From a bacterium (GTDB lineage Bacteria > Patescibacteriota > Microgenomatia > JAMCZE01), in NCBI GenBank assembly GCA_021836035.1, contig JAKBJL010000002.1:71484-135483 (forward strand): a DNA stretch of 64,000 nt, given 5' to 3'. The notes under the pieces were generated by a model. It saw only the letters and a program-made list of their open reading frames with translations. It did no database searches and was not told where the DNA came from. The position numbers and the translations under genes were made by a program. Position 1 is the first letter of the stretch. The number at the start of each line of letters is the position of its first letter. Below, in pieces: positions 2,793 through 64,000 of this stretch.

Positions 2793-2794
2793 AT

Positions 2795-5251: not shown

Positions 5252-5286
5252 TTTACATAAGTATCTTCCCCTGATATTATCATTTC
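5252..5286 (+). promoter_or_regulatory. Sigma70-like promoter for the epimerase gene, probably giving a leaderless transcript
   Basis: -35 TTTACA (5252-5257), an exact 17-nt spacer, an extended -10 TGaTATTAT (TG at 5272-5273, -10 at 5275-5280), and the ATG at 5287. There is no Shine-Dalgarno between the -10 and the ATG, so the predicted transcription start falls at or next to the start codon. Confidence 0.4.
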
Positions 5287-8190: not shown

Positions 8191-8219
8191 TCGTGTTCAA
8201 GAGATAAGATGAACCCTCA

Positions 8220-8864: not shown

Positions 8865-8866
8865 GT

Positions 8867-9931
8867 TTATTGTAGGTTATCTACTATAGCGGCGACCAAT
8901 TTATTTTGTGAATAGCTTTCTTTCAGTTTTTTTTGACCTTCCATAACTAAATTCTTAATTTCATTTCGATTTCTCTCTAAACTTTTAATGGCGTTAAAGA
9001 TTTGTTTGATATTCCCCTGCTTACATACATAACCGCCGATTCTATTATTAACAACTTCTCCGGCGCAGCCGGTATCGGTCATGACCACCGGTAAACCGGC
9101 GGCAAGAGCCTCAATAGCACTTAAACCCCATCCTTCATAATTAGAAGTCAACAGGAAGATATCGGACTTCGCCAGGGTCTGTTTAACTTCCAGGCGGTTT
9201 TTCTGGCCAACCAAGAGAACCTTTCCTTCCAATCCTTTTTCGCTGATCAGTCCTTCCAGCTTTGGCCGTTCTTCTCCCTCGCCTACTACCACAAACTTCA
9301 TCTTTGGGTAAGTTTTGCACACTCGTTCCGCCACCCCTATTAATAATGGTATATTTTTCTGTTTAATTAGCCTGGCTACCGTTACAATTTGGTTAAAGCG
9401 CTTTACATGCGGTTTGGACCAAAAGTAGTCGAGGTCAACCGGCACGGGGGCTACGAAGGACTTGTGGCCGTATCCGAGCCTCTTGCTAACCACCCTAACC
9501 GAATCCGCAGAGAGCAAGGTAAGCCTTCCCAGCCAATAAAAGAGATAATTCTGCAGGCTTTCGCGGCGAAAATAAGGGGTCTTAAAATAATCGTTATGAA
9601 TTTGGATATTTAACTTAACCCCCCAGCGGAATTTAGCCAAAACCCCTACCAAAGCGCAGATAAAAGGATCTTGGGTAGAAATTATATCCAGACGGGGTAA
9701 AGCGGTTAATATTTTCAGAGAATCCCCAAGATAATGCCAGCGGCTTAGCGAGTTGGTGGGAATAATATGTAAATTCTCCGCATCGATTCGGGAAAATCCC
9801 GCCAGCTTTAGGGAAAAAACGATAAGGTACAACTCTTTAAAATAATTCGCGTATTCCCGGTGTCTTGCCAGCACGTCGGCGTTTTTACCGGTAAATAAGC
9901 TGGTATCGGTACTGATAAAAACTATCTTCAT
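8867..9931 (-). CDS. Glycosyltransferase family 4, compositionally chimeric
   Basis: EGWGLSAIEALAAGLPVVMTDTGCAGEVV is the E-x7-E motif. The last ~60 codons (8867..~9050) are K/N-rich and about 30-37% GC, while the rest of the gene is about 45-63% GC. Confidence 0.8.
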   Translation of the reverse strand: MKIVFISTDTSLFTGKNADVLARHREYANYFKELYLIVFSLKLAGFSRIDAENLHIIPTNSLSRWHYLGDSLKILTALPRLDIISTQDPFICALVGVLAKFRWGVKLNIQIHNDYFKTPYFRRESLQNYLFYWLGRLTLLSADSVRVVSKRLGYGHKSFVAPVPVDLDYFWSKPHVKRFNQIVTVARLIKQKNIPLLIGVAERVCKTYPKMKFVVVGEGEERPKLEGLISEKGLEGKVLLVGQKNRLEVKQTLAKSDIFLLTSNYEGWGLSAIEALAAGLPVVMTDTGCAGEVVNNRIGGYVCKQGNIKQIFNAIKSLERNRNEIKNLVMEGQKKLKESYSQNKLVAAIVDNLQ

Positions 9932-11751
9932 ATTATCCTCGCGTCTATTTTACCCTGATTATCATAGAATAAATCTATCTTTCGCAACCGGCTATCACCA
10001 CCGCATACCGTGTAGCGCTCCCGATATTGCCCGGGAAAGTAATATGCCCTTATTTTGTCGGAAATACCCAAATAGCGCCGCAGGGACAATTCCGAAATTC
10101 CCCTTTCGACTTTTAAGCAACTATCGGGGGAATAAATTGATTTAACTTTGCCATTGATATTTTTCCAGTTTTGTTCCTTTAGCCAGGCTTGGGTGGTTGA
10201 TGAATAAGTTATTGCGGCGCCGAAAGAATCCCAAGAAATTGCATCATCGTCCAAACCGTTGGACAGATAATTGAATCGGAAAACAGTATTCAGCGTATAG
10301 ACAAGAGACAGCAACCAAATGGCGGCAAACAAAGTAATAATTATGGCTTTAGATTTAAATAACAGTAATGAATCGACAAAGATAATCAGTAACGGCAGAG
10401 TAATAAAAGGCAGGTAATAAGTCCTGACCCCGTTAAGAAGAAATATTACTGCCGAACTGAGGATAAAAATAATTATCAGCAACATATTACCCCCCTGTTT
10501 GCGCGTTGTGCCCATAAGCAGAAATATAATCAGTAAAGAAAAAAGGATAACTCCGTATTGATCAGCTAAAATCAGCGATAAGCGGGTAAGATTGCCGGAC
10601 AAATTCAGGGAAGCCTGTGTGGCCCCCGGATGCGCCGGAGTCTTGAATATCCGGGAGAAAAAGATATCGGTGTATCCCGTTGCAAGATATGCGCCGATGT
10701 TATAAACAATTACCGGGGAAAAGACAGCCAGAGCCGGGACAAACACCCGCAGGCCGTTTTTAATCAGCTCGCGCCTCTTAACAAGAACCAACCCCGCGCT
10801 AATAACGGGAAGTATCACCAGAGCGCTTTCTTTAACCAGCATCGCTCCTCCGAAAAATATCCCGGTTAAAAGTAAATATCTGTTTTCCTTGCCGTTGAAA
10901 AAGCGGAGAAAAACATAGATCGTTATTGTTAAAAGAAAGGTTAAAAACATTTCCCGGTGAAAGATGCGGCTCATAAAAATATGGTAATTATTAACCGCCA
11001 GTAAAGCCGTAACCGCAAAGGCTATAGATTTTTTCTTAAGAATCTCTTCCGACAGAAGATAAGCGAGGGGCAGTAACATTATACCGACTAACGCCGGGCC
11101 AAAGCGAAACATCCAGTCGGATAAGGTAGAAAGCCCCCCGGGCGAAAGAATCTGCATCGTAAAGTGCTGGATATATAAAGCCAGCGGCGGATGGCCGGAA
11201 AAAGAGAGAACCAAAGCTTTGCGACCGGCAAATATTCCGTCCACCAGGTTATCAGCCTGGTAACCGAGGTCATACTCATCACCGTTCAAATCGGGGATAT
11301 TTAACGGCAAAAATATCAGCAACGCGGCGATAAATAATGGCGGAATCAGTAATTTCAGATCCGTCAAGGATACTTTCTCTATTTGATCTTTTTTTCCATA
11401 AAGATACAGGGCCACCAGCGTTGTCAGTATATACATAACCAGCAGTATGAATATGTCGCCGGTCAGATGGTAACCGAAGATAGCTTGCGCTGATCTTCCT
11501 TCATAGAGAACGTTTAAAAACCCCGCGGGATAAGTCAAAAGCAAACTTAACCCGAACGAGATCAGTATTCTTTCCATAAGATCCCGGGACTTCGGGAGCA
11601 AAATCAGACTAAGAGGGTAACCACTGAAGAAAAAAACGAAAAGGAAACCGCTCACCCATCTTAAATACACCAGCCGGCTGTCAAACGACAGCAGAAGCGA
11701 TAGCAGCCCGGAGACTAAACCTGCCAGGAGCAGCTTATTTCTTTTCATCAC
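9928..11751 (-). CDS. Polytopic membrane protein, putative GT-C fold glycosyltransferase (ArnT/PMT-like) with C-terminal extracytoplasmic domain
   Basis: The protein is 607 aa with more than 10 hydrophobic helices in the first ~450 aa. An acidic loop NGDEYDLGYQADN follows the first helices, and a soluble C-terminal domain of about 150 aa follows the membrane part. Confidence 0.45.
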   Translation of the reverse strand: MMKRNKLLLAGLVSGLLSLLLSFDSRLVYLRWVSGFLFVFFFSGYPLSLILLPKSRDLMERILISFGLSLLLTYPAGFLNVLYEGRSAQAIFGYHLTGDIFILLVMYILTTLVALYLYGKKDQIEKVSLTDLKLLIPPLFIAALLIFLPLNIPDLNGDEYDLGYQADNLVDGIFAGRKALVLSFSGHPPLALYIQHFTMQILSPGGLSTLSDWMFRFGPALVGIMLLPLAYLLSEEILKKKSIAFAVTALLAVNNYHIFMSRIFHREMFLTFLLTITIYVFLRFFNGKENRYLLLTGIFFGGAMLVKESALVILPVISAGLVLVKRRELIKNGLRVFVPALAVFSPVIVYNIGAYLATGYTDIFFSRIFKTPAHPGATQASLNLSGNLTRLSLILADQYGVILFSLLIIFLLMGTTRKQGGNMLLIIIFILSSAVIFLLNGVRTYYLPFITLPLLIIFVDSLLLFKSKAIIITLFAAIWLLSLVYTLNTVFRFNYLSNGLDDDAISWDSFGAAITYSSTTQAWLKEQNWKNINGKVKSIYSPDSCLKVERGISELSLRRYLGISDKIRAYYFPGQYRERYTVCGGDSRLRKIDLFYDNQGKIDARII

Positions 11752-12910
11752 TTAAATTTCTAAATTCCCGCAAAACCATTACGGCAATCCGACCCCAGTG
11801 ATATTTCGTCCGGGCCAGTTCCGCACCATTATCGCCCAGGGCAAGGCGGAGATTTTTATCCCTTGCCAACTTTTCGATCGCTTTGGCAAGGTCCTTGGGG
11901 TCGTTTGGCAAAACCAGCAGACCGGTTCGCCGGTCGGTTAAAAAATCCGTGATCCCTCCCACGGGCGTGCCGATTACCGGAAGCCCTACCGCCATTGCTT
12001 CGATAAAGGAAGAGCCGAAACCCTCGTGGCGGGACGGCCGGATAAAAACGGAGCTACGTGAAAGCAGGGCCGGGATGTCCTTATTACTTACTCTTCCTAA
12101 AAAAGTTACCCGGTCGGCAATCCGCAACGACCTTGCCATTTTCTGCAGCTGCTTAAAAAGCGGTCCCTCTCCGGCAATGGTTAATTTCCATTTTAGTCCC
12201 GCCGGAAGAAGGGCGCAGGCTTTAATTAAAATATCGATGCCGTTACGGGGAATAAGCGAGGAGGTAGTCACGATCTCCAGTAGCTTATCTTCACTATTTC
12301 TTACGGGACGAAATTTCTCGATATCTACCCCGTTGGGAATAATCACGATATTTCTTGCTCCCATCCTTTGGGTAATTTTAGCCGAATAACTGCTAACCGC
12401 CGCTACCGTGTCTGCTTTTCTAAAGGACCAGGCGATCAGGGGGGTAATTAAATCAGCAAGTTCCGCGCGCAATTTCATCGGTAGCCAACCCCGAAGAACC
12501 AGCTCTTCCCGGGCCAGCAGCGGGTTCTGGGAAGTTATATATAGCGGAATTCCGGTAAACTTTTTAACCAAAGCTCCGACCTGCGCCTGGGGGAACTCCT
12601 GTTTTGCCCAGACAAGGTCATACTTTTTTAGTTTCGCAAGAACTATGGATAGGGGGGCGGCAAAAAGGATAAACATGATACCGTAGAGATTGGGAATATG
12701 GGGGTAAATTACCCGGTAATAATTTATGTGGGAAAGGCCGGGAAATTCTTTTTTGATCGTGATCTCCGGCCCGGTAACCACCGTCACCGCTTCCAGGTCC
12801 GGAGCTACCCTTTTTAATACTTCCACAAAATGCATTTCCGCCCCACCCAATTTTTCGGGTGTGATATCAGCGGCGATAGCAAGAATCCTCATATAATATC
12901 CAACTACCAA
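11735..12910 (-). CDS. Glycosyltransferase family 4
   Basis: ...RHEGFGSSFIEAMAVGLPVIGTPVGGITDFL... is the E-x7-E motif, and the N-terminal ...GGAEMHF... matches the GT4 N-domain. The likely start is the Met at 12892 (MRILAIAAD...). Confidence 0.8.
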   Translation of the reverse strand: MVVGYYMRILAIAADITPEKLGGAEMHFVEVLKRVAPDLEAVTVVTGPEITIKKEFPGLSHINYYRVIYPHIPNLYGIMFILFAAPLSIVLAKLKKYDLVWAKQEFPQAQVGALVKKFTGIPLYITSQNPLLAREELVLRGWLPMKLRAELADLITPLIAWSFRKADTVAAVSSYSAKITQRMGARNIVIIPNGVDIEKFRPVRNSEDKLLEIVTTSSLIPRNGIDILIKACALLPAGLKWKLTIAGEGPLFKQLQKMARSLRIADRVTFLGRVSNKDIPALLSRSSVFIRPSRHEGFGSSFIEAMAVGLPVIGTPVGGITDFLTDRRTGLLVLPNDPKDLAKAIEKLARDKNLRLALGDNGAELARTKYHWGRIAVMVLREFRNLSDEKK

Positions 12911-12913
12911 TAA

Positions 12914-14281
12914 CTAATTTCTAATCAGGGTCAACGAGCCGTTCGGCAGATAAGTAACGATCTCATCATACGCCGATAATTTTTCGTCTGATGAAATTAC
13001 CCCGCCTTTAATTACCGAAATATTACGGTCGGAGTAGAAGGTTGTGTGCCAGCCTTCAAATTCCATATTCGGTTTTTTAAGTAACAGTAAAACCCTGTCG
13101 GAAATAGCACTGTTTTCCTTAATATACCGCCCGATAACAACCCCATCTTTAAAACGGTCCCCGTTAAGCAGCGTTGCCGTGTATTTAGAGCTTTGAATTA
13201 CCGACAGGGCAATAACCGCAACGGCAAAAAATGCTCCCGCCGGACGGCTTTTTAAAAGCATGCGGCTGATAAAAAACCCCGCGGTAACCGAGATGAACGG
13301 TAATAAATAATAAATTAAATAGTCATGGCGGTTAGCGGCTTCTTCAAAAAGCAGCGGGTGTAAAGACCCGAAAAGCAACAGCATTAAGGGGAATTGATAG
13401 GTTCTTTTGGCAAAAAACAGAAGCAGGCCGGCCAACGAGATCAAAACAAGCGGCTTAGTGAAATACAATAAAATATAGGTTGTTTCCAATTTTAAAAACG
13501 CGAGAAAATCCGGACGGCTGGAGCGGAGGGCGAAAGCGGAGTTAAATCCCCCGCCGGTAAAGGATCCGCTAAGAATAAAGGTTTGGGAAACATGCGCCAG
13601 AAATAACCCTAGCGGCACAATTATCAACCAGACTAACTTTTTCTCAAATTTACGATGAAGCAGGAAGTGGTAAACCAGAAGAGAAACCGGCGTATAGTAA
13701 CCCGGCCAACCGGAAAGGCAACCTAGAATTATTCCGATAATTAACCAGACAAAATTCCGCCTGCTGTTACCTTCGTTCCAGGCGAGATATCTCCAGAGCG
13801 AAAAGAGAAAGAAGAACAAAACCGGTATCTCGTGGACGGCCATTTTCCCGAAGTAAAGGTAAAGCGGCGTAATTATCCAGAAAACGGCAGCAAGAGCGGC
13901 AACGGCGGGGCTATAAAGCTTTTTAACTATTACATAGAGCAATAATACCGTCAAAACGGACAAGATGATGGGTACTAACCGGGTAGATATTTCCGTAATT
14001 CCGAAAAAATAATAGGAAAGAGTCAATAAGGTGATCAACAAACCCGGATGGTGGGTGTGATAGGAAAATTCCGAGGGCGTTACAATTCCGGAGTTTACTA
14101 CCTGCCCGAAACGGGTGACAACCACCCCATAGCGTAAAGTATTTCTGGCAATATTGCCGAAAAAGGCGTTATTGAAGTCGTGATGTCCCCAAAAGGGCTT
14201 GTCCGCCCTATAAAGTAAAGCTATAAAAGCTAAAATAAGGGTTAATAAGAGTATTAAATTATGACGACACAATATCCTCAT
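12914..14281 (-). CDS. Polytopic membrane protein, putative GT-C glycosyltransferase
   Basis: The protein is 455 aa and multi-helical. The first loop, ...YRADKPFWGHHDFNNAFFGNIARN..., carries D/H residues, and the overall architecture resembles ArnT/PMT-type transferases. Confidence 0.4.
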   Translation of the reverse strand: MRILCRHNLILLLTLILAFIALLYRADKPFWGHHDFNNAFFGNIARNTLRYGVVVTRFGQVVNSGIVTPSEFSYHTHHPGLLITLLTLSYYFFGITEISTRLVPIILSVLTVLLLYVIVKKLYSPAVAALAAVFWIITPLYLYFGKMAVHEIPVLFFFLFSLWRYLAWNEGNSRRNFVWLIIGIILGCLSGWPGYYTPVSLLVYHFLLHRKFEKKLVWLIIVPLGLFLAHVSQTFILSGSFTGGGFNSAFALRSSRPDFLAFLKLETTYILLYFTKPLVLISLAGLLLFFAKRTYQFPLMLLLFGSLHPLLFEEAANRHDYLIYYLLPFISVTAGFFISRMLLKSRPAGAFFAVAVIALSVIQSSKYTATLLNGDRFKDGVVIGRYIKENSAISDRVLLLLKKPNMEFEGWHTTFYSDRNISVIKGGVISSDEKLSAYDEIVTYLPNGSLTLIRN

Positions 14282-15398
14282 ATACTTTAAATATTTGCAT
14301 ACTGATATGCTTCCAGGTATAGTATTTTTCTACAAGTTTATAACCTTCCTCCCCCATTTCCCCGCCTATCGGCGATTCTAATATCTTTTCCATTTTAGCA
14401 GCTAAATCTTGGGGGTTACCGGGATCGGTTAAATATCCCGTTTTCCCGTCCTTAATCAACAGACCGACATCTCCGATATCGCTGGCAATTACGGGAAGCC
14501 GGCAGGCCATAGCATCGACAAGTGTCAAGGGAAATCCTTCCGCTGATAATGAAGGCAGAACAAAAGCGTGCGAAGACTTGTATTCCCGGATAAGATCTTC
14601 CCCGTAAAGAGCCGGTTTGATATCTACCTTCTTCTCCAGTTTGGTAGCTGCCACAAGGTCTTTTATCTTAGCTTTTTCCGGACCTTCACCTACCAGAGTT
14701 AAACGAAATCGGGGAAAACGGGAGGCAATATTTTGGGCCGCTTTAATAAGAACCGGGAGACCTTTAACCTCAACAAAACGACCTACCCAGAGAAAGCGAA
14801 AAGCCTTTTTATCCCGGTGCGCCGATAGACTTTTGAATTTTTGCAAATCCACCCCGTTGCCAATGATAAAGGTTTTGCGGGTAGCCACTTTACCGTTTAA
14901 GGATTTTCCCGCGACCGTAATCAAAGCATCATAACGATAAATGTTTACGATAAGATTGCTGAGTATGGCCGGAAGCCCGCTGCGGTTAATTAAACCCGCA
15001 CCCAAACCGCTGCTTCCTAAGCCGTGAAGCGTATAAACGGTCTTTTTGCGCTTCAGCAATCCCAGCAGGGGCAAAAATATTGTGGTCGAATAACTGTGGC
15101 TGTGATAAATATCATAACCGGCAAATAGCGTATAACGGAAAGCGTAAAGGATAAATAAAAGGCGTCCGAAAAACCGGGGAAAAATAAACCGGGGGCCGAG
15201 GCGAAGTACTTTCAGCCTGCCGTTTTCATAAACTTCCCTGCCGGGGTAAATCTTACCAGTTTTATCGGTAAGGTTCGGGACTACGATATCCACCAGGCAT
15301 CCATAATCTTTTACCAGACGCTGTGATACTTCCCAAATATGCGCTTGCCCCCCGCCCCACCAGGGCATCCAGGCGTCAGTCAACATGCAAATCTTCAT
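14259..15398 (-). CDS. Glycosyltransferase family 4
   Basis: The N-terminal MKICMLTDAWMPWWGGGQAHIWEV is a GT4 N-domain motif, and ...SAEGFPLTLVDAMACRLPVIASDIGD... is the E-x7-E motif. Confidence 0.8.
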   Translation of the reverse strand: MKICMLTDAWMPWWGGGQAHIWEVSQRLVKDYGCLVDIVVPNLTDKTGKIYPGREVYENGRLKVLRLGPRFIFPRFFGRLLFILYAFRYTLFAGYDIYHSHSYSTTIFLPLLGLLKRKKTVYTLHGLGSSGLGAGLINRSGLPAILSNLIVNIYRYDALITVAGKSLNGKVATRKTFIIGNGVDLQKFKSLSAHRDKKAFRFLWVGRFVEVKGLPVLIKAAQNIASRFPRFRLTLVGEGPEKAKIKDLVAATKLEKKVDIKPALYGEDLIREYKSSHAFVLPSLSAEGFPLTLVDAMACRLPVIASDIGDVGLLIKDGKTGYLTDPGNPQDLAAKMEKILESPIGGEMGEEGYKLVEKYYTWKHISMQIFKVYEDIVSS

Positions 15399-15425
15399 AA
15401 GCAGCTCAAAGCCAATAGCAAATAG

Positions 15426-17679: not shown

Positions 17680-17680
17680 A

Positions 17681-26725: not shown

Positions 26726-26726
26726 C

Positions 26727-37695: not shown

Positions 37696-37709
37696 AAGAT
37701 TTCCGCTGC

Positions 37710-56833: not shown

Positions 56834-58638
56834 TTATCCGTTACTAAGGAAACCAGATCGGTATTCGCCGGTACTTCCGCTTCGATCAGGCGGAAAGCGG
56901 GAGTATTATCAGGATAAGAGATAGTTTGCCAGACTTTCATCCGCGGCCTGACTTCCGCAGGTTTATAACTCCTTTGAAGATCCCCTTTAATAAAACCGGG
57001 CGGCAAATCTTCATCCCAGTCGATAAGCAGCAGGCGCTTAGACGGTGCCTCAAGAAAACGCGAGGCGTCATAAATTTTACCCCAGGCAATCGATCCGGGA
57101 AAATAATAATTCGCAAAACTGCGGACATGAACAAAACCCTCGCTGGTTGCCGGATACCTTACGGCCTCTTGCCAGTAAAGTGCGGGCGGAAAACTCTGAT
57201 AAAAAAGGAAAAAAATGTAAGGCGAACGGTCGGGATGAGGTACCACGACCATATCAAATTCCTTTTGCCGGCTGATTGCCGATTTCACCGCTTCTCTTAA
57301 GCCATAATTCCAGGCTCCGGCGCGCTGGGCCGCTTCCAGGGGTCCGTAATTCCAAATCTCGGGAGATGTTTGGGGGAAGTGCACAAAATAAGCATCCACA
57401 AAAAGCAAATTGCCGTATATATAGGCGCCGCCCAGAAACGCCAGGCCGGCCAAGGACAGAACCCGGGACAAATTTCTTAATATCCGGTAAATAAACAACA
57501 ATCCGTAGGCGGAAATGAGGGGAATTACTCCCGCGGCGAAAATCGACCGGCTGAAATGGGGCGCATCCCGGGTTATGGTTGCCGGCAACGGAGCTAACAG
57601 CAACCACGAAAGTAAAATCCATTTATTAGACAGCCGGCTATTTAACAAACCTAAGATCCCGGCAAGAAGCAAAAAGTAATCGAGGTAATTTAAGTTGCCC
57701 CGATCGGGAAGATTATGTTGAATGTTAGTACCGCCGCCTTCTACTAAAAATTGGGGCGAGAAAAAGTTGAGATAATTATTGGCGGATTGCTGCAGCATAT
57801 AAACCAGTCGGTTGTGAAGCAGGGGAACCAGCGGCTCCAATATTCCGTGCGGTTGACTACGCGGTAAATCAATAATTTTATTTAATTGAGCCCGGTCGCT
57901 TAATAAGCCGATTCCGGAAATTTTCACCACATCCGCCCCGGTTAAAGTGGTCAGTAAACTTAAGGCCCACAAAACGATAAAAACTAGCCCGGTTGTTAGG
58001 CTTAACCAACCCCGCGGCAGATTTTTCCTTTGCAGAAAGAGAAAAATAACCAGGAATGCCGGAATGAAAACATGGCTGGCATGATAGGAAAAAAGGGTAG
58101 CGGCCATTAGTAAAGCCGATAAAACCAGTAAAACACGGTGCCTGTCAGAATCATAAAAAGAAAGCACAGCGCCTAAAAATAAAGCCAAAGCAAAGTTTGC
58201 TTCATAAGCCGCCCTGCTGAAAAAAACGCTCCAGGGCAAAAAAGCGAAAAGGGCTGCCGAAATCAGCGCCAAAATATCCCGGTATTTATCCTCCGGATAG
58301 ATTTTGCGGGCCAGGAAAAAAAGCAGAATAACGCTAAGTACCCCGGAGGTGGCGGATACAAAGCGAACGGCAAACTCCGTTAAAGAAAACAGCTTTACCG
58401 CCGGAATAGTAGCAAAAACGTAAAGCGGCAATTTCCAGTCGCCGAAAGATTCGAGCGACAACGGAAAAAACCGCCCGTACTCATCCCGGCCGGTGGTTAA
58501 GAGGGAATAGGCCGTGTAGCCGATTGAGGCCTCGTCGCGGTTTAATCCTACCGGAACGGTCCCCAGCTCGTAAAAACGCAATAATATAGCCATCAGCAGG
58601 ACTAACCCCAGGGAAAAACCCAGCAATTTTTTGCTCAT
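56830..58638 (-). CDS. GT-C glycosyltransferase, PMT_2/ArnT family, paralog A5
   Basis: ...LRFYELGTVPVGLNRDEASIGYTAYSLLTTGRDEYGRFFPLSLESFGDWKLPLYVFA... carries the family motif. The protein is 602 aa with a C-terminal soluble domain. Confidence 0.7.
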   Translation of the reverse strand: MSKKLLGFSLGLVLLMAILLRFYELGTVPVGLNRDEASIGYTAYSLLTTGRDEYGRFFPLSLESFGDWKLPLYVFATIPAVKLFSLTEFAVRFVSATSGVLSVILLFFLARKIYPEDKYRDILALISAALFAFLPWSVFFSRAAYEANFALALFLGAVLSFYDSDRHRVLLVLSALLMAATLFSYHASHVFIPAFLVIFLFLQRKNLPRGWLSLTTGLVFIVLWALSLLTTLTGADVVKISGIGLLSDRAQLNKIIDLPRSQPHGILEPLVPLLHNRLVYMLQQSANNYLNFFSPQFLVEGGGTNIQHNLPDRGNLNYLDYFLLLAGILGLLNSRLSNKWILLSWLLLAPLPATITRDAPHFSRSIFAAGVIPLISAYGLLFIYRILRNLSRVLSLAGLAFLGGAYIYGNLLFVDAYFVHFPQTSPEIWNYGPLEAAQRAGAWNYGLREAVKSAISRQKEFDMVVVPHPDRSPYIFFLFYQSFPPALYWQEAVRYPATSEGFVHVRSFANYYFPGSIAWGKIYDASRFLEAPSKRLLLIDWDEDLPPGFIKGDLQRSYKPAEVRPRMKVWQTISYPDNTPAFRLIEAEVPANTDLVSLVTDK

Positions 58639-60212
58639 TAAATTCCCTCCAGTTTTACTACGGAAATATTTCCCGGAAAATCTTTCTGCTCAAGAATCTT
58701 CCCCATTCTCTGTAGCCCTTTTTGCCACTCTGCCCTCGCTGCCGGCCTGTCCCTGTCCGGCTCTAAGATTAAATAGTATAACCCTCCGATCTTTCGGGGA
58801 ATTTTAACCTGCTCTCCGATTCCTAACGGCGGTACCGCCACATTTAAATTCTGCGGCGCATAGCCGTAAGTTTTCCGGCCGTACCAATAAAAATCATATT
58901 GCCAGATATAATCATAGACCGGCGGGGTATAGGCAAAAAAAGCAAATTTATTTCCTCCTGCCGAATGGTACACGTAATCTACCACCCGGATTTGGTTGCG
59001 GAGAGTCCCGGTATCCCCCGGACCGGGATTGGTTAGGCCGGCTAAACCTTCGCCGCTGACCAGGCTGGCCGAGAGCCCCCAAATGCTCAGGCCCAGTATT
59101 AAATAACGGGTCAGATTGGCGCTCTGCCAAAGCACGGCAAAGGGGATAACGATTAAAAGGGCATAAACTACCGGTAATCCGGCACGGTACCAAGCCCAAA
59201 GCGGTCCCGGATATAAGCTGAAACCAAGGTAAAATACCGCCAGAACCGTAAGGAGAATTTTTAAAACATTTAAACAGGGTACTAATTTTTGGCGATAAGC
59301 GGTAATCCAACCCCAGAGGGCCAGCAAGGTCACCGGCAAAATAAAATACCAGGCAGATAGCGGCATGGCCATTTGGATAAAATCGGCGGCCATGGTTTTA
59401 GCGCGTTCCCAGAACCGAAGATAGAGAGGCAGGGCTGAGCCGTAAAGGCTGCGGTTCTCGCCGGTCAGAAAATGCAGCAAACTGTTAGCCATTAAAAAGC
59501 GGTGCCGGATATCGAAAATCACCTGGGGTAAAAATGTCAGCAACAGGATACCTAAACCCAGGAAAAAATAGCGGGACTTTAAAGTATTTGTTTTTTTAAA
59601 AATTAACAGCAGCGCCAATATCACCGGAAGAGTAAAAACGGCAAAGCCGATCTCCAACTGGAAAAAGACACCAACCAATAACCACCAAAGCAGCCAAAAA
59701 ACATCCCGCCGGTTAACCATAATTTCGTAGGCGCACCAGATAAAGAAAAAGAACAGATAGGCTAGCGGCAGAGGACTTAAAACCACCTGAGAACCGCCGA
59801 TAAAATGCGGGCTCAGCAGCAGAAAAATATAAGTGGCGACAGCTTCCTTTTCTCCCCATATCCGACGCACGATAAAGTAAGCCGCAACTGTTGCCGCCAG
59901 ACTAAAAATTACCAGATAGAGCATATTAGCTGCGGGATTACCGCCGCTTAAAAGGAACGGCACGGCTAAAAACCAGGTCCAGAGCGGTCCCATCAGCACC
60001 CCTTCCAAACCGCTGTATCGGCTGATCAGGTTGAGCTTATGATCTACAACCAGCTGCTTGACCATGATCATATCCAGGCCCTGATCAAAACCGAAAAAAA
60101 CGCCGTTGTGGATGAGCGGAATAATCCGCAGGAATGCTGCCAGCAGAAAAACAACTATTAAAACAAGTGGTTTAATCTTTGAACGCATAGCAGTCATACA
60201 AATCATTAGCAT
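58638..60212 (-). CDS. Polytopic membrane protein, FGFDQ-motif family (putative GT-C), paralog F1
   Basis: The protein is 524 aa. ...LRIIPLIHNGVFFGFDQGLDMIMVKQLVVDHKLNLISRYSGLEGVLMGPLWTW... is shared with 61061..62581 and 62594..63895. Confidence 0.4.
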   Translation of the reverse strand: MLMICMTAMRSKIKPLVLIVVFLLAAFLRIIPLIHNGVFFGFDQGLDMIMVKQLVVDHKLNLISRYSGLEGVLMGPLWTWFLAVPFLLSGGNPAANMLYLVIFSLAATVAAYFIVRRIWGEKEAVATYIFLLLSPHFIGGSQVVLSPLPLAYLFFFFIWCAYEIMVNRRDVFWLLWWLLVGVFFQLEIGFAVFTLPVILALLLIFKKTNTLKSRYFFLGLGILLLTFLPQVIFDIRHRFLMANSLLHFLTGENRSLYGSALPLYLRFWERAKTMAADFIQMAMPLSAWYFILPVTLLALWGWITAYRQKLVPCLNVLKILLTVLAVFYLGFSLYPGPLWAWYRAGLPVVYALLIVIPFAVLWQSANLTRYLILGLSIWGLSASLVSGEGLAGLTNPGPGDTGTLRNQIRVVDYVYHSAGGNKFAFFAYTPPVYDYIWQYDFYWYGRKTYGYAPQNLNVAVPPLGIGEQVKIPRKIGGLYYLILEPDRDRPAARAEWQKGLQRMGKILEQKDFPGNISVVKLEGI

Positions 60213-61083
60213 AATAAGGAACTATTAAACGCGGCAAACCAAAAGTTTTTATCGCACCTTGCGCTACCGCGGCTAATTTTTTGTTGATCGCCTTTAGGCG
60301 GGAGGCCAGATAACCCAGGGAAAGGCGGCGCCAATGCGGGCGGAAGATTACTTTGGAAAAACCGATGCGCTGAAGATAACTATCCGCTGTCCGGCGGCTT
60401 AAAAAGACCCGGTGCATTTCCATATACCAGGGCCATTTACTGCCCATAAATCTCGCCAGGGGGCTCTCCGGATCAACAGTTGAAAAGGCCAATACTCCCC
60501 CGGATTTTAAATACCGGCAAACTTTTTTTAACTCGGCTACGGGGTCGGCAAAGTGTTCGATTACGTCCCACATGGTAATAACATCAAAACTGTTTTCAGG
60601 AAATACGCCCGAGGCGAAAGGTTTATTAATTAAATCAATTTGGTAGTTCTTCAGGGCAAACTCTACCGCCCAACGGTTGGGCTCCAGTCCCCGGGCGTTC
60701 CAACCGCGATCGCGGGCAATTTTGACAAAAAGCCCGGTATTGGTGCCCACGTCCAACAGCTTTCCCCGCTCCGGGTAAATTTTTTCCAGCTTAGAGAGAT
60801 AAATTTCAAAAGTCTTGCGGCGGGCTTCTTGTTCCGCAAAATAAAGGGGATCCTGGGAAACTTCATAATAGGTACTGATCCGTTCCTGGGATAGGTTTTC
60901 ATTGCTGTAGATCATTCCGCAAAGGTCGCATTTTACAATCGGTCCGTGCATCCCGAAGCCGCAGTTGGTACAGGAAAATTCCCCGGCCTTCAGGGAACCG
61001 GTATTATTAGTCGGAGGATAAATCAGCTTTACCGCCCCTTGGCCGCAAAAACGGCAATGATCAGTTTTTTTCCGTACATCCAT
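60172..61083 (-). CDS. SAM-dependent methyltransferase with N-terminal Cys4 zinc-ribbon
   Basis: N-terminal C-x2-C...C-x2-C (CRFCGQG...CTNCGFG) and a further C-x2-C (CDLCG). Motif I LLDVGTNTGLF. ...FDVITMWDVIEHF...LKSGGVLAFS. The architecture resembles the zinc-binding domain plus Methyltransf_23 of NDP-sugar/polysaccharide methyltransferases. Confidence 0.6.
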   Translation of the reverse strand: MDVRKKTDHCRFCGQGAVKLIYPPTNNTGSLKAGEFSCTNCGFGMHGPIVKCDLCGMIYSNENLSQERISTYYEVSQDPLYFAEQEARRKTFEIYLSKLEKIYPERGKLLDVGTNTGLFVKIARDRGWNARGLEPNRWAVEFALKNYQIDLINKPFASGVFPENSFDVITMWDVIEHFADPVAELKKVCRYLKSGGVLAFSTVDPESPLARFMGSKWPWYMEMHRVFLSRRTADSYLQRIGFSKVIFRPHWRRLSLGYLASRLKAINKKLAAVAQGAIKTFGLPRLIVPYYANDLYDCYAFKD

Positions 61084-62581
61084 AGGCGACTCTCTTCTGA
61101 ACGGTAAATTGCCCGAATCTCTTTTCGGAAATTAAATTGGATTCCCGGTTTTCGCCGTCATAAAACTCACTGACAAACCATCCGGCGATACCTCTTTGCG
61201 GCTCCGCAATAACATACCGCCGGCAAGTCCCCTCCGCCCCCTCGGGTAAACTGCCCGGAAACTGTGGATTATTGCCCCAGGAAAAAGCAGGAAAGTAGCC
61301 GTAGGATTTTCCGTATTGCCGGTAAAGATAAGCCCAGGTGGTTTGAATCTTGAGCGGCATGGAAAGAGTTTTAATCTGGAATTTTTCTCCCGCGGCTTCA
61401 CGGTAAGTATAATCCACAACCGCCCGTTCATCCCGCAGCATCATGCCGTTTTGAACCGCCAATAATCCCCAGACCAGCCCGTTTCTTCCCTGGCTAAGCA
61501 ATAATTTAATATTACCAAGGAGTATGAGGATAATCAGCAAAGTTAAAACCGCTTTATTCCTTATTAGCTTCAACATTAAAAATACCGTAAGGAGGGTAAG
61601 GGGTATGGCAACGCCGATATTGGTCATAAAATAACCCAGGGTGGCAATATTGGCAAAATACAGAACCAGCGGACCGGCAACCCAGACCAGTAAAAAAAGC
61701 ATTTCCCGGCGGTAGCGTTGCTCTTTTAAAGCAAGATAAAGGAGAAGGAAAAAAACCAATGCCGAGAAAAATAAGCTGAAACCAAATAAATTAAGATAAA
61801 TATGCTGGAAATATTTCTCGAGAATGACGGTTAGATGATCGCTTACCCGGTAAAGTTCCTGCCCGGAGGAAGCAAAAAACTTTAACAAGGATACGGTCAT
61901 TCTGAGCGGATACTTAATTTCAGCTAGAAGATAATTTCCGATTGTCCCCCCAAAAACCAGGAGGGAAATAAGCAGCCACTTCCGGTTAATTTCAACAGTC
62001 TTGTGATATAAAAATAAATTGACCGGGGGAATAATCGCCAGGTATATTAAAAAAAATTCGAAATGGATAGCCGTCCCCAGGCCCGCGGCTAACAGCACCA
62101 GGCCCCAGGGTTTGTTTTTTAAAAAGAAAAGCAGGCAGCCGAGGTAAAATATCAAAACGGATATCATTGCGGGTGAAGGATTGGCCGCGTAATAGGAATA
62201 CTGGTATTGCTCAAAGGAAAAAGCATAAAAAAGGGCCGCCAGGAGTCCCGCCTTTTTCCCGAACAAAAGGCTTCCGATAAGATAGACCAGAAATACCCCG
62301 CCGGCATTTAAGACCATAAGCGCGGCAAACGGCAATTGCGGATCGCCGCGGGACAAAGCGTAAAAAGGGCCGATTAAATAATAGTAAAGCGGCCCCTGGA
62401 AGACACCGCTAATATCCGTGGGCGGACCGAGAAGCTTAATACTGCGATCCCCTATCCATTGCCGGGAAACATAAGCATCCCTCGCCTGATCAAAGCCGAA
62501 ATAAATATTGCCCGGGAAGTAGACAAAACGATAGAGCAGAGCGCCAGCAAAAACCGCTAGCAGGATAAGCCAATACTTCAC
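61061..62581 (-). CDS. Polytopic membrane protein, FGFDQ-motif family (putative GT-C), paralog F2
   Basis: ...LYRFVYFPGNIYFGFDQARDAYVSRQWIGDRSIKLLGPPTDISGVFQGPLYYYLIGPFY.... Confidence 0.4.
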   Translation of the reverse strand: MKYWLILLAVFAGALLYRFVYFPGNIYFGFDQARDAYVSRQWIGDRSIKLLGPPTDISGVFQGPLYYYLIGPFYALSRGDPQLPFAALMVLNAGGVFLVYLIGSLLFGKKAGLLAALFYAFSFEQYQYSYYAANPSPAMISVLIFYLGCLLFFLKNKPWGLVLLAAGLGTAIHFEFFLIYLAIIPPVNLFLYHKTVEINRKWLLISLLVFGGTIGNYLLAEIKYPLRMTVSLLKFFASSGQELYRVSDHLTVILEKYFQHIYLNLFGFSLFFSALVFFLLLYLALKEQRYRREMLFLLVWVAGPLVLYFANIATLGYFMTNIGVAIPLTLLTVFLMLKLIRNKAVLTLLIILILLGNIKLLLSQGRNGLVWGLLAVQNGMMLRDERAVVDYTYREAAGEKFQIKTLSMPLKIQTTWAYLYRQYGKSYGYFPAFSWGNNPQFPGSLPEGAEGTCRRYVIAEPQRGIAGWFVSEFYDGENRESNLISEKRFGQFTVQKRVAYGCTEKN

Positions 62582-62593
62582 TAGGCTATTCTA

Positions 62594-63895
62594 TCAGAAA
62601 TTTTTAACTACCTTAATATCCCCGAAAGTTGCCCCGCTTTCAGAGCTTAAATCCCCGGGGAGAAAGAGGGTGTAACGGGAATTAACAGCGCCGGATTGAG
62701 CCTGAGGATCGCGTAGCCAAAACAGGTAGGGAAAACCGTTATTTAATCCCGGTGCCGCCATAACCCCGTAAGTCACCTGGGGGCACTGACAGTTTGCCAA
62801 AACATAATTTACCGCCCGCTCTTTAGAAAGGAGGCTATAGGGATTTGCCGCGACCATAAAACTCCTGAGATTAAGATAAAAAAACACCGCGGCTGCGATT
62901 GGCAATAACGCCCGTCCGACCCCGCTTCCGGCCAGACGACGGGCGAGGGTAGCGTAAATTAAAATAATCGCGGGAAAAGTTAACAAAAAATAATATTCCG
63001 GAACGGGACCGGGATAAAAAGAGAACACTAAAAGCGGGACGGCGATCCAGATTAAATATTCCCGGATGTGCTGCCGGGCCAACCATATTACCGCCGCTAT
63101 CATAATTATCCCCTGCCAGGCACCCGGTAAGCCGAAAATGGCCAAAAAATTCTGGATATTAATCCTGGCCAGGAGCAGCATTTTAAAAATAAACGGATAA
63201 GCTGCGCCCGGCTGCGCGCCCGCCGTAAAAATCTCCCCAAATCTCTGAACCTCCCCGAATCCGTGCCTCAGTTCAAAAAGAAGCGAAGGCAGGATAAGGA
63301 GGATAAAACCGGCTAACCCCAGATAAACCGAGCTACGGGAGGCTTTGAATTTATGGCCCAAGCCCTCCGCAAGAGATACCGGCAACATTAACATTCCGGT
63401 AGGATGAAAATTCCAGCTGACGCCTGATAATAAGAAACTCACGGGGATATTCTGCCGGAATTCCCAGGCTAATAACGCCAGGAAAATCAAGGGATTGGAA
63501 GGCGCGCTACCCCGGTCTACTAAAATAATCCGGAAGGAAAAAATATAGATAAAGAGGGCCCATATCCCGCCGAGCCGATAGATCAAAACCATGCTCCCGA
63601 GAGCGAAAAACATCTGCAAGACATTTCCCGCTAACGGGTTCATTCCCCCCAGAAAATAAAAAACGCTTAACAGGTAATAATACCCCGGGCCGGTAAATAT
63701 CCCGCCGAGGGAAATTTGCTGCCCGATGAGGGAAATTTTATGATCCACTAAAAAACTTTTTATCCACCAAGCGGCAGCTTCCTGGTCAAAATCAAAGCCG
63801 GCAAAGCGCTCAATTTGATAAAAGCGAATAGCTAAACCCAAAGCCATAAATCCGGCCGCCAAAAAAAACTTCAGAAAACGCTTATTTTTAATCAC
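62594..63895 (-). CDS. Polytopic membrane protein, FGFDQ-motif family (putative GT-C), paralog F3; GTG start or 5' end outside window
   Basis: ...IRFYQIERFAGFDFDQEAAAWWIKSFLVDHKISLIGQQISLGGIFTGPGYYYLLSVFY.... The codon at 63893-63895 is GTG. The frame stays open to the window edge (no in-frame stop in 63896-64000), so the true N-terminus is uncertain. Confidence 0.4.
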   Translation of the reverse strand: MIKNKRFLKFFLAAGFMALGLAIRFYQIERFAGFDFDQEAAAWWIKSFLVDHKISLIGQQISLGGIFTGPGYYYLLSVFYFLGGMNPLAGNVLQMFFALGSMVLIYRLGGIWALFIYIFSFRIILVDRGSAPSNPLIFLALLAWEFRQNIPVSFLLSGVSWNFHPTGMLMLPVSLAEGLGHKFKASRSSVYLGLAGFILLILPSLLFELRHGFGEVQRFGEIFTAGAQPGAAYPFIFKMLLLARINIQNFLAIFGLPGAWQGIIMIAAVIWLARQHIREYLIWIAVPLLVFSFYPGPVPEYYFLLTFPAIILIYATLARRLAGSGVGRALLPIAAAVFFYLNLRSFMVAANPYSLLSKERAVNYVLANCQCPQVTYGVMAAPGLNNGFPYLFWLRDPQAQSGAVNSRYTLFLPGDLSSESGATFGDIKVVKNF

Positions 63896-64000
63896 AGTTT
63901 TATGATGCCGACGGCACCGAAGCGGGTTGCCAGAGCATTTGTATCTACTAAAAAATAAGGCAGGATAATCTTGTAAGTTCGGTGGGTGGCAACGGACATG

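Follow-up and report, generated by a model that had tools for sequence, protein, structure and literature searches.

The window analysed here, a stretch of 64,000 nucleotides, carries most of a glycan-biosynthesis array that, judged from its sequence, probably forms an extracytoplasmic glycan assembly line. The source is an uncultured bacterium, very probably an ultra-small member of the Microgenomates (Patescibacteria/CPR) to judge from named homologues, all of which are Patescibacteria/Microgenomates. From its 23 GT-C-type membrane proteins and the recurrence of such loci across the lineage, we infer that a complex surface glycan is apparently built largely outside the cell membrane. ORF listing and hydropathy reveal 24 polytopic ORFs within 9928–63895, each with 6–14 crude TM peaks and all, like the other array genes cited below, on the minus strand. 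One is a Wzx flippase, and the remaining 23, of 371–792 aa, sum to 12,812 aa or about 71% of 54 kb, which bears out the count in a first-pass annotation of this DNA. The boundaries given there (9928–63895) were too narrow, since the array extends past both coordinates. It reaches about 8 kb past the window, where four more GT-Cs and three more synthase-like GT2s precede its end at trmD, giving 27 GT-Cs in the whole array and a span, with flanks, of at least 80 kb.

The array runs head-to-tail and co-directionally, with gene junctions that overlap or measure <30 nt almost throughout, and the same locus is found on seven independently assembled contigs; it is therefore not a chance pattern. Because stop and start codons overlap in one direction, the genes appear to be translationally coupled and are most likely co-expressed. 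This speaks against a combinatorial or variable decoration battery, in which different subsets of GT-C modules would give the cell varied surfaces, as a defence against phages or for recognising hosts, a reading that we regard as unlikely. Such a use would suit the divergence of the multi-copy families to 24–50% identity, the varying battery composition among related loci that retain a constant core, and an adjoining low-GC ABC-transporter cluster resembling an exchangeable O-antigen-type region. However, the paralogues stem from old duplications, not recent ones, and diversity between genomes is no proof of combinatorial use inside one cell. Neither homopolymer tracts of ≥9 nt usable as on/off switches nor simple-sequence switches were found in the array. 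An assembly line fits better, because the genes are coupled and co-directional and such switches are absent.

By blastp and hhalign, the 23 GT-Cs fall into four multi-copy families (4, 5, 3 and 3 members) and eight singletons, in keeping with the earlier estimate of at least six families. Pfam matches at or above the gathering score are to PMT_2 in eight proteins, YfhO in four and PTPS_related in three; a sub-threshold PMT_2 match is seen in three others, and the five with no Pfam match were assigned by other means. All motifs quoted in the first-pass annotation were recovered by sequence search. Since the N-terminal tails ahead of TM1 are K/R-rich, the sequences indicate a GT-C topology with the N-terminus in and loop 1 out, and the acidic motifs, within the 45 residues following TM1, would lie in the first extracytoplasmic loop, as had been predicted. 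In family B, the part of loop 1 with "DYKPP" aligns with loop 1/TM2 of ArnT, and the family profile matches ArnT (5ezm) at E 0.013. Family, profile and fold evidence thus supports the assignment of the 23 proteins as GT-C-type. That they are instead transporters or other non-GT proteins is extremely improbable: the idea is contradicted by the Pfam family matches and fold comparisons, no supporting point was found, and Foldseek gives no transporter structure a probability above 0.12.

Family B comprises five proteins with a (D/N/Y)WDEAS, LDEAA or RDEAS motif. PMT_2 is matched by 56830–58638 ("NRDEASIG"; 27.9 bits; 30–32% identity to other members), 32888–34390 ("YWDEASIA"; 46.4 bits) and 30833–32470 ("NWDEASLG"; 42.3 bits, with PMT at 32 bits), and below threshold by 34387–36045 ("NLDEAAIG"; 24.7 bits; 35–36% identity to other members) and 25124–26803 ("DWDEASLG"; 21.2 bits; 35–37%), whose TTG start has probably been called too early. 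Family D is related to family B at an hhalign probability of 98% and carries FGFDQ in 58638–60212 (PMT_2 35.5 bits) and 61061–62581 (30.4 bits; gathering score 26.1), and FDFDQ in 62594–63895. The latter has no Pfam match of its own and was placed by blastp to 58638–60212 (1.7e-12) and 61061–62581; its NCBI version is 417 aa long. The two families that the first-pass annotation could not name are accordingly PMT_2, for the FGFDQ proteins, and PTPS_related (PF10131), for three proteins with ETPVR and/or SLGGL: 21237–22919 (28 bits; gathering score 26.4), 46704–48443 (30.1 bits; gathering score 26.4) and 48440–49984 (5.5e-13), which has a YfhO-like C-terminus (4.5e-9).

The four YfhO proteins share a C-terminal (F/Y)PGW(Q/K)A ... 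P.G...V.F motif, of which FPGW is common to the three PTPS_related proteins too. They are 37710–39953 (4.6e-19), which comes after the conserved core in relatives, 49981–52353 (6.1e-26; YFPGWQA and PAGKHTVEF), 52308–54686 (41.8 bits; 50% identity to 49981–52353) and 54602–56833 (7.1e-28). The last lacks TM1, which its paralogues have, and its alignment starts at residue 39 of 49981–52353. This is one reason to ask whether a sizeable share of the GT-C-fold proteins have no transferase role and are instead flippase-associated (Agl23-like), non-catalytic scaffolds, as PIG-U/GAB1 is in GPI transamidase, or decayed paralogues. Four PMT_2 proteins indeed have their top NCBIfam similarity to Agl23, a "flippase activity-associated protein", and recognisable flippases are too few for seven lipid-sugar synthases. 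Some members may thus have a non-transferase role, but we consider this quite improbable for a sizeable share of them: the Agl23 scores, at 25–41 bits, fall far short of the cut-off of 126, the GT-C proteins examined all retain a conserved Asp or Glu in loop 1, and every ORF is intact, free of frameshifts and internal stops.

Among the singletons, three match both PMT_2 and PMT: 9928–11751 (62.9 and 56.9 bits), with an extra N-terminal block of TM helices of about 125 aa and "NGDEYD" in the loop that follows a helix at roughly residues 133–150; 12914–14281 (47 and 39 bits); and 27955–29481 (50.6 and 25.8 bits), with FTDEA and a weak ArnT NCBIfam match. The protein 18358–19473, with NFDGVHYL...FFPVYP, has only a PMT_2 match of its own (4.5e-4) and belongs to a PIG-V-like family in which 30 of 60 representatives match Pfam Mannosyl_trans2 (best 2.3e-13), 10 PMT_2 and 6 GT87. 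A distant PMT_2/TMTC-like family is represented by 22916–24370 ("FFQDDFF"); it has no Pfam match of its own, some of its homologues carry PMT_2 and remote ones TPR+DUF1736, and its family profile matches family B at an hhalign probability of 91% (E 9e-7). The GT-C fold protein 26727–27965 is from a well-conserved, Pfam-less family. The protein 29465–30832 (S.D.F.YI...NPYGP) had been called GT87-like, a label to be replaced by MptA/MptB-like on NCBIfam similarity (MptA-type TIGR03459 1.5e-12; MptB 5.7e-9), both scores being below cut-off; its 454-aa counterpart in the related locus L008 bears Pfam MptA_B_family. The eighth singleton, 41811–43535, is considered below.

The four lipid-sugar synthases proposed earlier are recognisable as GT2s that resemble polyprenyl-phosphate-sugar synthases over their full length. 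The candidates are 43459–44388 (GtrB/ArnC/PgfS type; PgfS 2.4e-76 over 2–304 of 308 and ArnC 1.6e-49 over 8–312 of 316), with two C-terminal TM helices peaking at residues 226 and 267; 36045–36746 (AglJ/DPM1-like; AglJ 2.9e-25 over 2–217 of 293); 24367–25140 (AglJ/Dol-P-hexose-transferase-like; AglJ 1.1e-17 and DPhHxTase 4.2e-15, near full length); and 17681–18370 (PpgS/GacI-like, a polyprenyl-P-HexNAc synthase candidate; PpgS 2.2e-46 over 3–221 of 226). All of these assignments score below the NCBIfam equivalog cut-offs, and some of the GT2s could be ordinary cytoplasmic transferases. A small DUF2304 membrane protein of the GacJ/Rv3632 family (16568–16921; 1.7e-26, 93 bits, full length) is, by analogy, a likely activator of the PpgS/GacI-like synthase, a role described for GacJ/Rv3632 (bioRxiv 10.1101/180810). 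This gene had been overlooked, as had a conserved small membrane protein, a 148-aa maximal ORF (32467–32913) with no Pfam match and 49% identity (1e-41) to a comparably placed 134-aa ORF of L008. The Wzx/MOP-type flippase for lipid-linked oligosaccharide, also noted earlier, is 45278–46729 (Polysacc_synt_3 6.6e-42; NCBIfam MOP flippase full length), and the only GtrA-type flippase domain seen is fused to a GT2 upstream of the window. Cytoplasmic enzymes include the GT2s 44385–45281 (Glycos_transf_2 1.7e-17), 41008–41811 (3.2e-9), 36730–37695 (321 aa; 1.6e-25) and 20497–21240 (6.5e-20), the GT4s 39950–41011 (Glycos_transf_1 5.6e-19), 19439–20500 (1.5e-32), 15426–16571 (7.7e-41), 14259–15398 (1.2e-40) and 11735–12910 (2.8e-43), and the SAM-dependent methyltransferases 60172–61083 (Methyltransf_23 7.6e-25) and 16918–17727 (Methyltransf_11 1.7e-11).

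The protein 41811–43535 represents a new family whose closest solved folds, by predicted-structure comparison, are oligosaccharyltransferase (OST) catalytic subunits. It has at least 458 relatives in metagenomes. When 43 non-redundant metagenome loci are centred on this family, the surrounding ±10 kb contain a median of 6 GT-Cs (range 3–10); Wzx is present in 34 and adjacent to the family member in 26. A five-gene core of Wzx, the OST-fold GT-C, two GT2s (44385–45281 and 41008–41811) and a GT4 (39950–41011) is complete in 27 of the 43, the 44385–45281 homologue occurs in 42 of 50 related loci, and the cores of L008 and L010 are syntenic. The GT-C battery is thus a lineage-wide trait of Microgenomates-type bacteria and not a peculiarity of the window. 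The OST-like fold also raises the real, if minor, possibility that the locus is mainly a protein-glycosylation machine. Instead of assembling a wall polysaccharide or lipoglycan, its OST-fold, PMT_2/PMT-like and YfhO/PgfM-like enzymes would then attach O- or N-linked glycans to secreted proteins, for example pilins, adhesins or S-layer subunits. The family of protein O-mannosyltransferases is PMT/PMT_2; 43459–44388 has its top NCBIfam match in PgfS, from the Pgf system for protein glycosylation in streptococci; the 48440–49984 C-terminus weakly matches PgfM1/PgfM2; several of the GT2s are similar to AglJ, which acts in S-layer N-glycosylation in archaea; and Wzx matches an "O-glycosylation flippase" model below its cut-off. 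Yet 41811–43535 lacks a WWDYG motif and an STT3 Pfam match, and its sequence matches none of the PDB chains. PMT_2 and YfhO members of known function have lipid A, teichoic acids and polysaccharides among their targets as well (PMC5836110, PMC8035078), and assembly of a polysaccharide or lipoglycan is what the Wzm/Wzt polymer exporter and the MptA/B-like enzymes suggest. The locus contains no acceptor protein gene; in the window and fetched flanks, no candidate acceptor protein, initiating phosphoglycosyltransferase or LCP-type wall ligase was found. Protein glycosylation and an assembly line are compatible.

The steps proposed for the assembly line are drawn from homology and genomic context; what is directly established is which genes are present, the families and folds to which they belong, where the motifs lie, the operon-like packing and the conservation among many related loci. 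On the cytoplasmic face, DPM1/GtrB/GacI/PpgS-type GT2s, four in the window and three just upstream, would charge polyprenyl phosphate with sugars taken from nucleotide sugars, one of them aided by the DUF2304 partner. Some lipid-linked sugars may be extended to oligosaccharides by the soluble GT2 and GT4 enzymes and flipped by Wzx, and the GtrA domain could serve the monosaccharide carrier. On the outer face, each of the 23 GT-C-fold enzymes (27 in the whole array) would move a sugar or oligosaccharide from its lipid carrier to a growing acceptor, the enzymes jointly elongating, branching and decorating a complex polymer. Because Wzy and WaaL are absent (a Pfam scan of 49 ORFs found neither these nor Bac_transf or MraY-type families), the 41811–43535 family, usually next to Wzx, and predicted to have an OST-like fold, is the best candidate for en-bloc transfer or polymerisation.

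A possible acceptor is a capped backbone made in the cytoplasm and probably delivered by the Wzm/Wzt exporter and methyltransferases, for which the rhamnan acceptor of lactococci is the model. The exporter lies in a low-GC (34–39%) ABC-transporter-type polysaccharide cluster (1533–9931, minus strand; Pfam, NCBIfam and GC profile) with Wzt carrying Wzt_C (1533–2792; TagH/galactan-Wzt-like by NCBIfam), Wzm (2795–3613; Pfam), three GT4s, FkbM and SAM methyltransferases, and an epimerase/dehydratase on the plus strand (5287–6210). The closest logic is found in lactococcal Rha-CWPS, where several GT-Cs work with Wzx and an ABC exporter (PMC10821137), and in mycobacterial LAM/AG, LM/LAM being made by GT-C superfamily enzymes with polyprenyl-P-mannose (PMC3485146); further mechanistic precedent is available (PMC8035078). 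These systems contradict the earlier statement that known systems use one such enzyme. With that, the combinatorial use and the GT87 label set aside, a multi-module extracytoplasmic glycosylation system was the right kind of reading, and its GT-C assignment, topology, candidate synthases and Wzx are supported. The ABC-exporter cluster adjoins the array and lay outside the range of the first-pass annotation.

The minus strand of the window holds all open reading frames (ORFs) of at least 150 aa that were taken as genes, except those at 111–662, 655–1536 and 5287–6210 (ORF listing). In a hydropathy scan, 24 polytopic ORFs were found within 9928–63895, one of which encodes a Wzx/MOP flippase (45278–46729); the remaining 23 are of 371–792 aa each and sum to 12,812 residues, or ~71% of the 54 kb. 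Neighbouring genes overlap by 1–85 nt or are separated by less than 30 nt, with two exceptions of 346 and 417 nt, each of which contains one small membrane ORF. The sequence motifs quoted in the first-pass annotation were all found in the window proteins, and seven contigs, assembled independently, carry the same DNA. Because the motifs are present, the junctions are tight and seven independent assemblies agree, the feature is real and not an artefact. Neither tRNA genes nor Rfam families were found in a search across the window, and homopolymer tracts that could act as phase-variation switches were looked for and not found.

All 23 proteins (named here by their start positions or coordinates) are of the GT-C type, as the first-pass annotation had claimed, each by at least one independent line among Pfam, blastp/hhalign, NCBIfam and fold. 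Eight of them (9928, 12914, 27955, 30833, 32888, 56830, 58638 and 61061) reach the gathering threshold of Pfam PMT_2 (PF13231), and four of the eight also pass that of PMT (PF02366); sub-threshold PMT_2 matches were seen for 18358, 25124 and 34387, which were placed through paralogy or family scans. Four proteins match YfhO (PF09586; 41.8–97.9 bits vs a gathering threshold of 28.5), all with the C-terminal (F/Y)PGW...P.G...V.F motif, and three match PTPS_related (PF10131; 21237 at 28.0, 46704 at 30.1 and 48440 at 48.7 bits vs a threshold of 26.4). Comparison among the window proteins by blastp and local hhalign resolves four multi-copy families and eight singletons: family A, YfhO (37710, 49981, 52308, 54602); family B, “WDEAS” PMT_2 (25124, 30833, 32888, 34387, 56830); family C, PTPS_related (21237, 46704, 48440); and family D, “FGFDQ” PMT_2 (58638, 61061, 62594). 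Two families that had earlier been left without a name are thus PTPS_related and PMT_2. By the same comparison, families B and D are interlinked with 9928, 12914 and 27955, and A and C are linked to each other. Within-family identity is 24–50%, and the duplications are therefore old. The paralogue 54602–56833 of family A begins at residue 39 of 49981–52353 and lacks the first transmembrane (TM) helix, with no longer in-frame start upstream; it may be functional without TM1, or partly decayed. The maximal ORFs of 25124–26803 and 41811–43535 start at TTG or GTG and reach 77 nt into the gene upstream. The former has ~29 additional N-terminal residues compared to most paralogues (alignment A3), the database gene call for the latter is 567 aa vs 574 aa for the maximal ORF, and the true starts of both probably lie farther downstream.

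The remaining assignments depend on wider families. The protein 62594–63895 has no Pfam match and was placed in family D by blastp; its start codon in the database entry differs from that of the ORF used here. The protein 29465–30832 is MptA/MptB-like in NCBIfam (TIGR03459, 47.2 bits vs a cut-off of 439.4; MptB, 34.9 vs 40), and its counterpart in L008, a related metagenome locus, carries the Pfam MptA_B_family domain; it is related to the MptA/MptB polyprenyl-P-mannose mannosyltransferases without being an equivalog. When the Pfam-less proteins were compared with the window families by hhalign as single sequences, no signal was obtained, and deeper alignments or structure prediction were required. 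For 22916–24370, 41 homologues were found besides itself, a few with PMT_2 and the remote ones with TPR/DUF1736 (TMTC-like), and its family profile aligned with family B at an hhalign probability of 91% (E 9e-7). The earlier designation of 18358–19473 as PIG-V-like holds at the family level only: half of the representatives of its family (30/60) match Pfam Mannosyl_trans2 (PF04188; best E 2.3e-13), but the protein itself has no such match at E ≤0.01, its own Pfam match being a weak one to PMT_2. A scan of a genome collection with a YfhO protein gave three distant matches only (Chloroflexota, Gemmatimonadales, Anaerolineae; ≤35–44% identity, partial length), and the named homologues of three other proteins are all from Gottesmanbacteria, Shapirobacteria, Woesebacteria, Curtissbacteria, the “Microgenomates group” or the “Patescibacteria group”. 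On this basis a Microgenomates (CPR) source is inferred, and Chloroflexota, considered at first, was dropped.

A conserved Asp/Glu motif is present in 23/23 proteins, no more than ~45 residues past the first TM helix or, in 9928–11751, its equivalent, where “NGDEYD” comes after an inserted N-terminal helix bundle. A whole-protein positive-inside count, which is crude, was ambiguous, and the charge of the N-terminal tail was analysed in its place: in the 17 proteins with a cleanly located TM1, the tail has 1–6 Lys/Arg and 0–1 Asp/Glu. A PDB sequence search returned nothing at E ≤0.01 for family B, and nothing for 9928–11751 or the 41811–43535 family. The sole PDB match of the family B profile is a weak one to ArnT (E 0.013), in which “KPPLYIY...” is aligned with “KPPFHMW...” of ArnT where periplasmic loop 1 ends. 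In both structure models, TM1 is followed by two short loop helices with invariant residues and then TM2, a predicted order that corresponds to the GT-C_A arrangement, and similarity to solved GT-C enzymes of this fold was found, with AftA, AftB, AftD and PimE among the matches. The N-terminal tail is thus predicted to be cytoplasmic and the acidic motif to lie in the first extracytoplasmic loop. A cytoplasmic motif or a transporter fold would contradict a GT-C assignment; neither was found by N-tail charge, ArnT alignment or modelling.

The protein 41811–43535 stands out among those without a Pfam match. Among its 54 word-indexed matches, including the window's own copy, there is none whose membrane part is covered by a Pfam model. 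The AlphaFold model is confident (pLDDT 91.5, pTM 0.90), and 14 oligosaccharyltransferase (OST) catalytic subunits take the top ranks in Foldseek, with a small lead of the OST fold over PMT and AftA. OST genes in pgl and agl loci adjoin a flippase and cytoplasmic glycosyltransferases, and so does 41811–43535. However, unlike STT3/AglB/PglB it lacks WWDYG (its sequence does not contain even “WW”) and is of only 574 aa, and none of 45 family members matches the STT3 family in Pfam. Identity as an STT3/AglB/PglB oligosaccharyltransferase was rejected, the WWDYG being missing and there being no STT3 or PDB sequence match; the protein is OST-like in its predicted fold but does not belong to the STT3 family. 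We regard the 41811–43535 family as a candidate for en-bloc transfer or polymerisation. In two related metagenome loci (L051 and L057), the family member beside Wzx is 1113–1135 aa, about twice the usual length, which suggests a fusion to another domain or a tandem fusion.

The surroundings of this gene recur in relatives. Two of these, one on a contig from groundwater and the other on a 559-kb contig of the “Patescibacteria group”, keep the order Wzx, GT2, PgfS-like GT2, 41811-family GT-C, GT2, GT4, YfhO (in the window, from Wzx at 45278–46729 through 44385–45281, 43459–44388, 41811–43535 and 41008–41811 to the GT4 at 39950–41011), with extra GT-Cs on the flanks. Near-complete related contigs include Ga0209542_10000005 (956 kb) and JAMCRP010000001.1 (559 kb). 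When metagenomes were scanned with an alignment of the 41811 family, at least 458 relatives were obtained, from which 80 loci were taken; Hainich groundwater samples are among the sources of the related contigs. ORFs were called and searched with family HMMs of the window proteins, and the loci were collapsed at 90% identity to 43 non-redundant ones of at least 12 kb. In these loci, which were selected through the 41811 family and have flanks limited to 10 kb, the number of GT-C genes is 3–10 (median 6). Their density has a median of 3.45 per 10 kb vs 3.6 in the window, where recovery of the 23 by the same HMMs is circular. Wzx is present in 34/43 loci and directly beside the 41811-family gene in 26/43, and Wzx, both GT2s and the GT4 occur together in 27/43.

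The interval 9928–63895 further encodes eight GT2s, five GT4s and two methyltransferases. Four lipid-sugar synthases and a Wzx had been proposed. The flippase is well supported (Polysacc_synt_3, 6.6e-42), and four GT2s on the minus strand show whole-length similarity to synthases, but every score is under the NCBIfam equivalog cut-off and they are accordingly candidates: 43459–44388 (PgfS 2.4e-76, ArnC 1.6e-49, two C-terminal TM helices), 17681–18370 (PpgS 2.2e-46), and 24367–25140 and 36045–36746 (both AglJ/Dol-P-hexose transferase). The 346-nt gap is filled by a DUF2304 protein of 117 aa (16568–16921, minus strand; 93 bits, full length), which the first-pass annotation had not mentioned; a methyltransferase gene separates it from the PpgS-like GT2 upstream. 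Proteins of the DUF2304 family, GacJ and Rv3632, stimulate the GacI and PpgS synthases (10.1101/180810). The 417-nt gap contains 32467–32913 (minus strand), a 148-aa maximal ORF for a small membrane protein without a Pfam match; at 49% identity (1e-41) to a similarly placed ORF of 134 aa in L008 (17896–18300), it is a conserved gene within the battery.

Flanking DNA was read from a matching 236-kb contig (DAHXMT010000003.1, GCA_027371575.1). The array runs ~8 kb upstream past the right end of the window (515–8690 of the right flank, L005) and stops at a divergently transcribed trmD. This extension encodes three AglJ/PgfS/PpgS-like GT2s, two PMT_2 proteins, one MptA_B-family protein and a 495-aa relative of family D with “FFYDQGRD”; one of these GT2s (L005 1246–2418) is fused to GtrA_DPMS_TM, a flippase-type domain. 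The extension brings the whole array to 27 genes of the GT-C type and to as many as seven candidate lipid-sugar synthases. Its flippases are the Wzx in the window and the GtrA_DPMS_TM domain just upstream; no free-standing GtrA was found in the window. Wzy, O-antigen ligase/WaaL, Bac_transf and Glycos_transf_4 (MraY-type) were found neither in the 49 window ORFs nor in the precomputed Pfam annotation of the flanks, and the genes for Wzy and the initiating phosphoglycosyltransferase may lie at another site of the genome.

On the left, GC content falls from 45–48% in the GT-C array to 34–39% left of ~9000 (also at 8000–18000 of the left flank, L006), with the boundary just before the first GT-C gene at 9928. 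The cluster at 1–9000 encodes Wzm (ABC2_membrane, 2.1e-17), Wzt (ABC_tran, and Wzt_C at 31.7 bits vs 30.4; TagH/galactan-Wzt-like), GT4s, FkbM and SAM methyltransferases and an epimerase/dehydratase. Wzm together with a Wzt that has a C-terminal carbohydrate-binding domain marks an ABC-transporter-dependent pathway, here outside 9928–63895, and the low-GC block resembles an exchangeable region of the O-antigen type that has a different origin. Further left, L006 has additional GT4, methyltransferase, radical-SAM/SPASM, ABC and CapK_C genes. Since both flanks carry glycan genes, the glycan gene region spans at least 80 kb. A radical-SAM/SPASM protein adjoins an FkbM methyltransferase at L006 5648–7900, ~3–5 kb left of the window, and CapK_C and DUF362 proteins are encoded farther out; these are possible sugar-modification enzymes of the wider glycan region.

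The best-supported reading of the locus is a glycan assembly line that works outside the cytoplasm. The analysis establishes which genes are present, their families and folds, how they are packed and how far they are conserved, whereas we infer donors, linkages, acceptor and activity from homology and context. GT2 synthases, one with a DUF2304 helper, would charge polyprenyl phosphate with sugars, and soluble GT2 and GT4 enzymes would lengthen some of these carriers to oligosaccharides. The oligosaccharide carrier would be flipped by Wzx and the monosaccharide carrier served by the GtrA domain. With seven synthase-like GT2s, Wzx and GtrA in the array, the GT-Cs would use polyprenyl-phosphate-linked donors outside the membrane, and the 23–27 enzymes would pass sugars or oligosaccharides to one or more acceptors. 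En-bloc transfer or polymerisation could fall to the Wzx-linked OST-fold family, and Wzm/Wzt may provide a capped backbone. With ~7 synthases for 27 GT-Cs, many GT-Cs would therefore share donors. A more far-reaching proposal, which we put forward tentatively and consider rather unlikely, is that CPR bacteria of the Microgenomates type build their main envelope glycopolymer almost wholly outside the membrane by more than 25 GT-Cs, and that the 41811–43535 family pairs with Wzx as an en-bloc transferase or polymerase in the place of Wzy/WaaL. If true, the Wzx-coupled GT-Cs would form a new class, and the envelope pathway would be lineage-defining for these ultra-small bacteria.

The first-pass annotation stated that known systems use one such enzyme, which is incorrect. 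In the lactococcal rhamnose-rich cell-wall polysaccharide (Rha-CWPS), WpsA/WpsB (GacI/GacJ type) make GlcNAc-P-C55, which is extended by cytoplasmic glycosyltransferases on the monophosphate carrier and exported by a Wzx-type flippase; the GT-C WpsH polymerises, and the GT-C WpsJ joins the product to an ABC-exported rhamnan (PMC10821137). This “dual-chain assembly” (Rgp/Wps) is closest in logic, and its component types are all present here: a GacI-type GT2 with DUF2304, cytoplasmic glycosyltransferases, a Wzx-type flippase, GT-Cs and an ABC transporter. However, there are 23–27 GT-Cs and up to seven lipid-sugar synthases here and two or three GT-Cs there, the rhamnose pathway, TagO and LCP ligase are absent from our locus, the Wzx-linked GT-C is from a different, Pfam-less family of OST-like fold, and the host is a CPR bacterium, not a Firmicute. 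Closest in scale is mycobacterial LM/LAM, built by GT-C enzymes from polyprenyl-P-mannose (PMC3485146). In mycobacterial and corynebacterial LM, LAM and arabinogalactan synthesis (MptA/B/C, PimE, Emb, Aft; PpgS-Rv3632-Rv3779), many different GT-Cs act in series outside the membrane on one large glycopolymer, with polyprenyl-P-sugars as donors (PMC3485146). The locus likewise encodes MptA/B-like, PpgS-like and Rv3632/DUF2304-like proteins, with MptA/B scores under the equivalog cut-offs, whereas neither Emb/Aft sequence families nor a decaprenyl-P-arabinose pathway turned up in it. Mycobacteria have a much larger genome, in which the genes are dispersed among several loci, whereas those described here form one array.

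Three- and four-component transmembrane glycosylation systems (GtrABC, CsbB/GtcA/YfhO, GacIJKL, ArnC/ArnT) share the module logic of GT2 lipid-P-sugar synthase, flippase and GT-C, and one GT-C adds a single side-chain sugar (PMC8035078, PMC5836110, PMC11127046). YfhO, PMT_2/ArnT-like, GtrB/ArnC-like and GacJ-like members are all present here, but with many GT-Cs stacked and only one GtrA-type domain, off the window. As for the Pgf protein-glycosylation system of Streptococcus mutans (PgfS, PgfM1, PgfE, PgfM2), 43459–44388 shows full-length similarity to the PgfS model (2.4e-76) and the YfhO/PTPS_related C-termini weakly match PgfM1/PgfM2, with scores far below the equivalog cut-offs (257 vs 500 for PgfS; 18–23 vs 1400–1500 for PgfM1/PgfM2).

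Unusual features are the many GT-Cs packed densely into a single array, the unmodelled GT-C families, the recurrent core of Wzx and OST-fold GT-C without Wzy or WaaL, and the occurrence in a lineage with minimal genomes. A literature search for GT-C batteries in CPR found no description, its coverage being incomplete and the absence no proof of novelty; glycans are not mentioned in a 2024 Patescibacteria perspective. CPR/Patescibacteria have tiny genomes of about 1 Mb. They make up a large share of bacterial diversity and live attached to other cells, yet the chemistry of their surface has scarcely been studied. Glycan genes that take up at least 80 kb, with 27 GT-Cs in one array, and that recur across dozens of related metagenome loci imply that complex surface glycans are central to these organisms, possible roles being attachment to a host, defence against phages or integrity of the envelope. 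The several Pfam-less GT-C families, including the Wzx-linked OST-fold one, are targets for structural and glyco-engineering work. The common picture is corrected in that bacterial GT-Cs need not act singly outside Actinobacteria either.

Two minor observations concern the plus strand. Its AT skew is strongly positive (0.19–0.26) where GT-C genes are dense (20001–36000 and 48001–64000); this is a compositional by-product and no replication signal, and fits minus-strand genes for hydrophobic membrane proteins, whose coding strands are rich in T. A 168-aa plus-strand ORF at 11883–12389, antisense to the GT4 gene 11735–12910, is most likely spurious.
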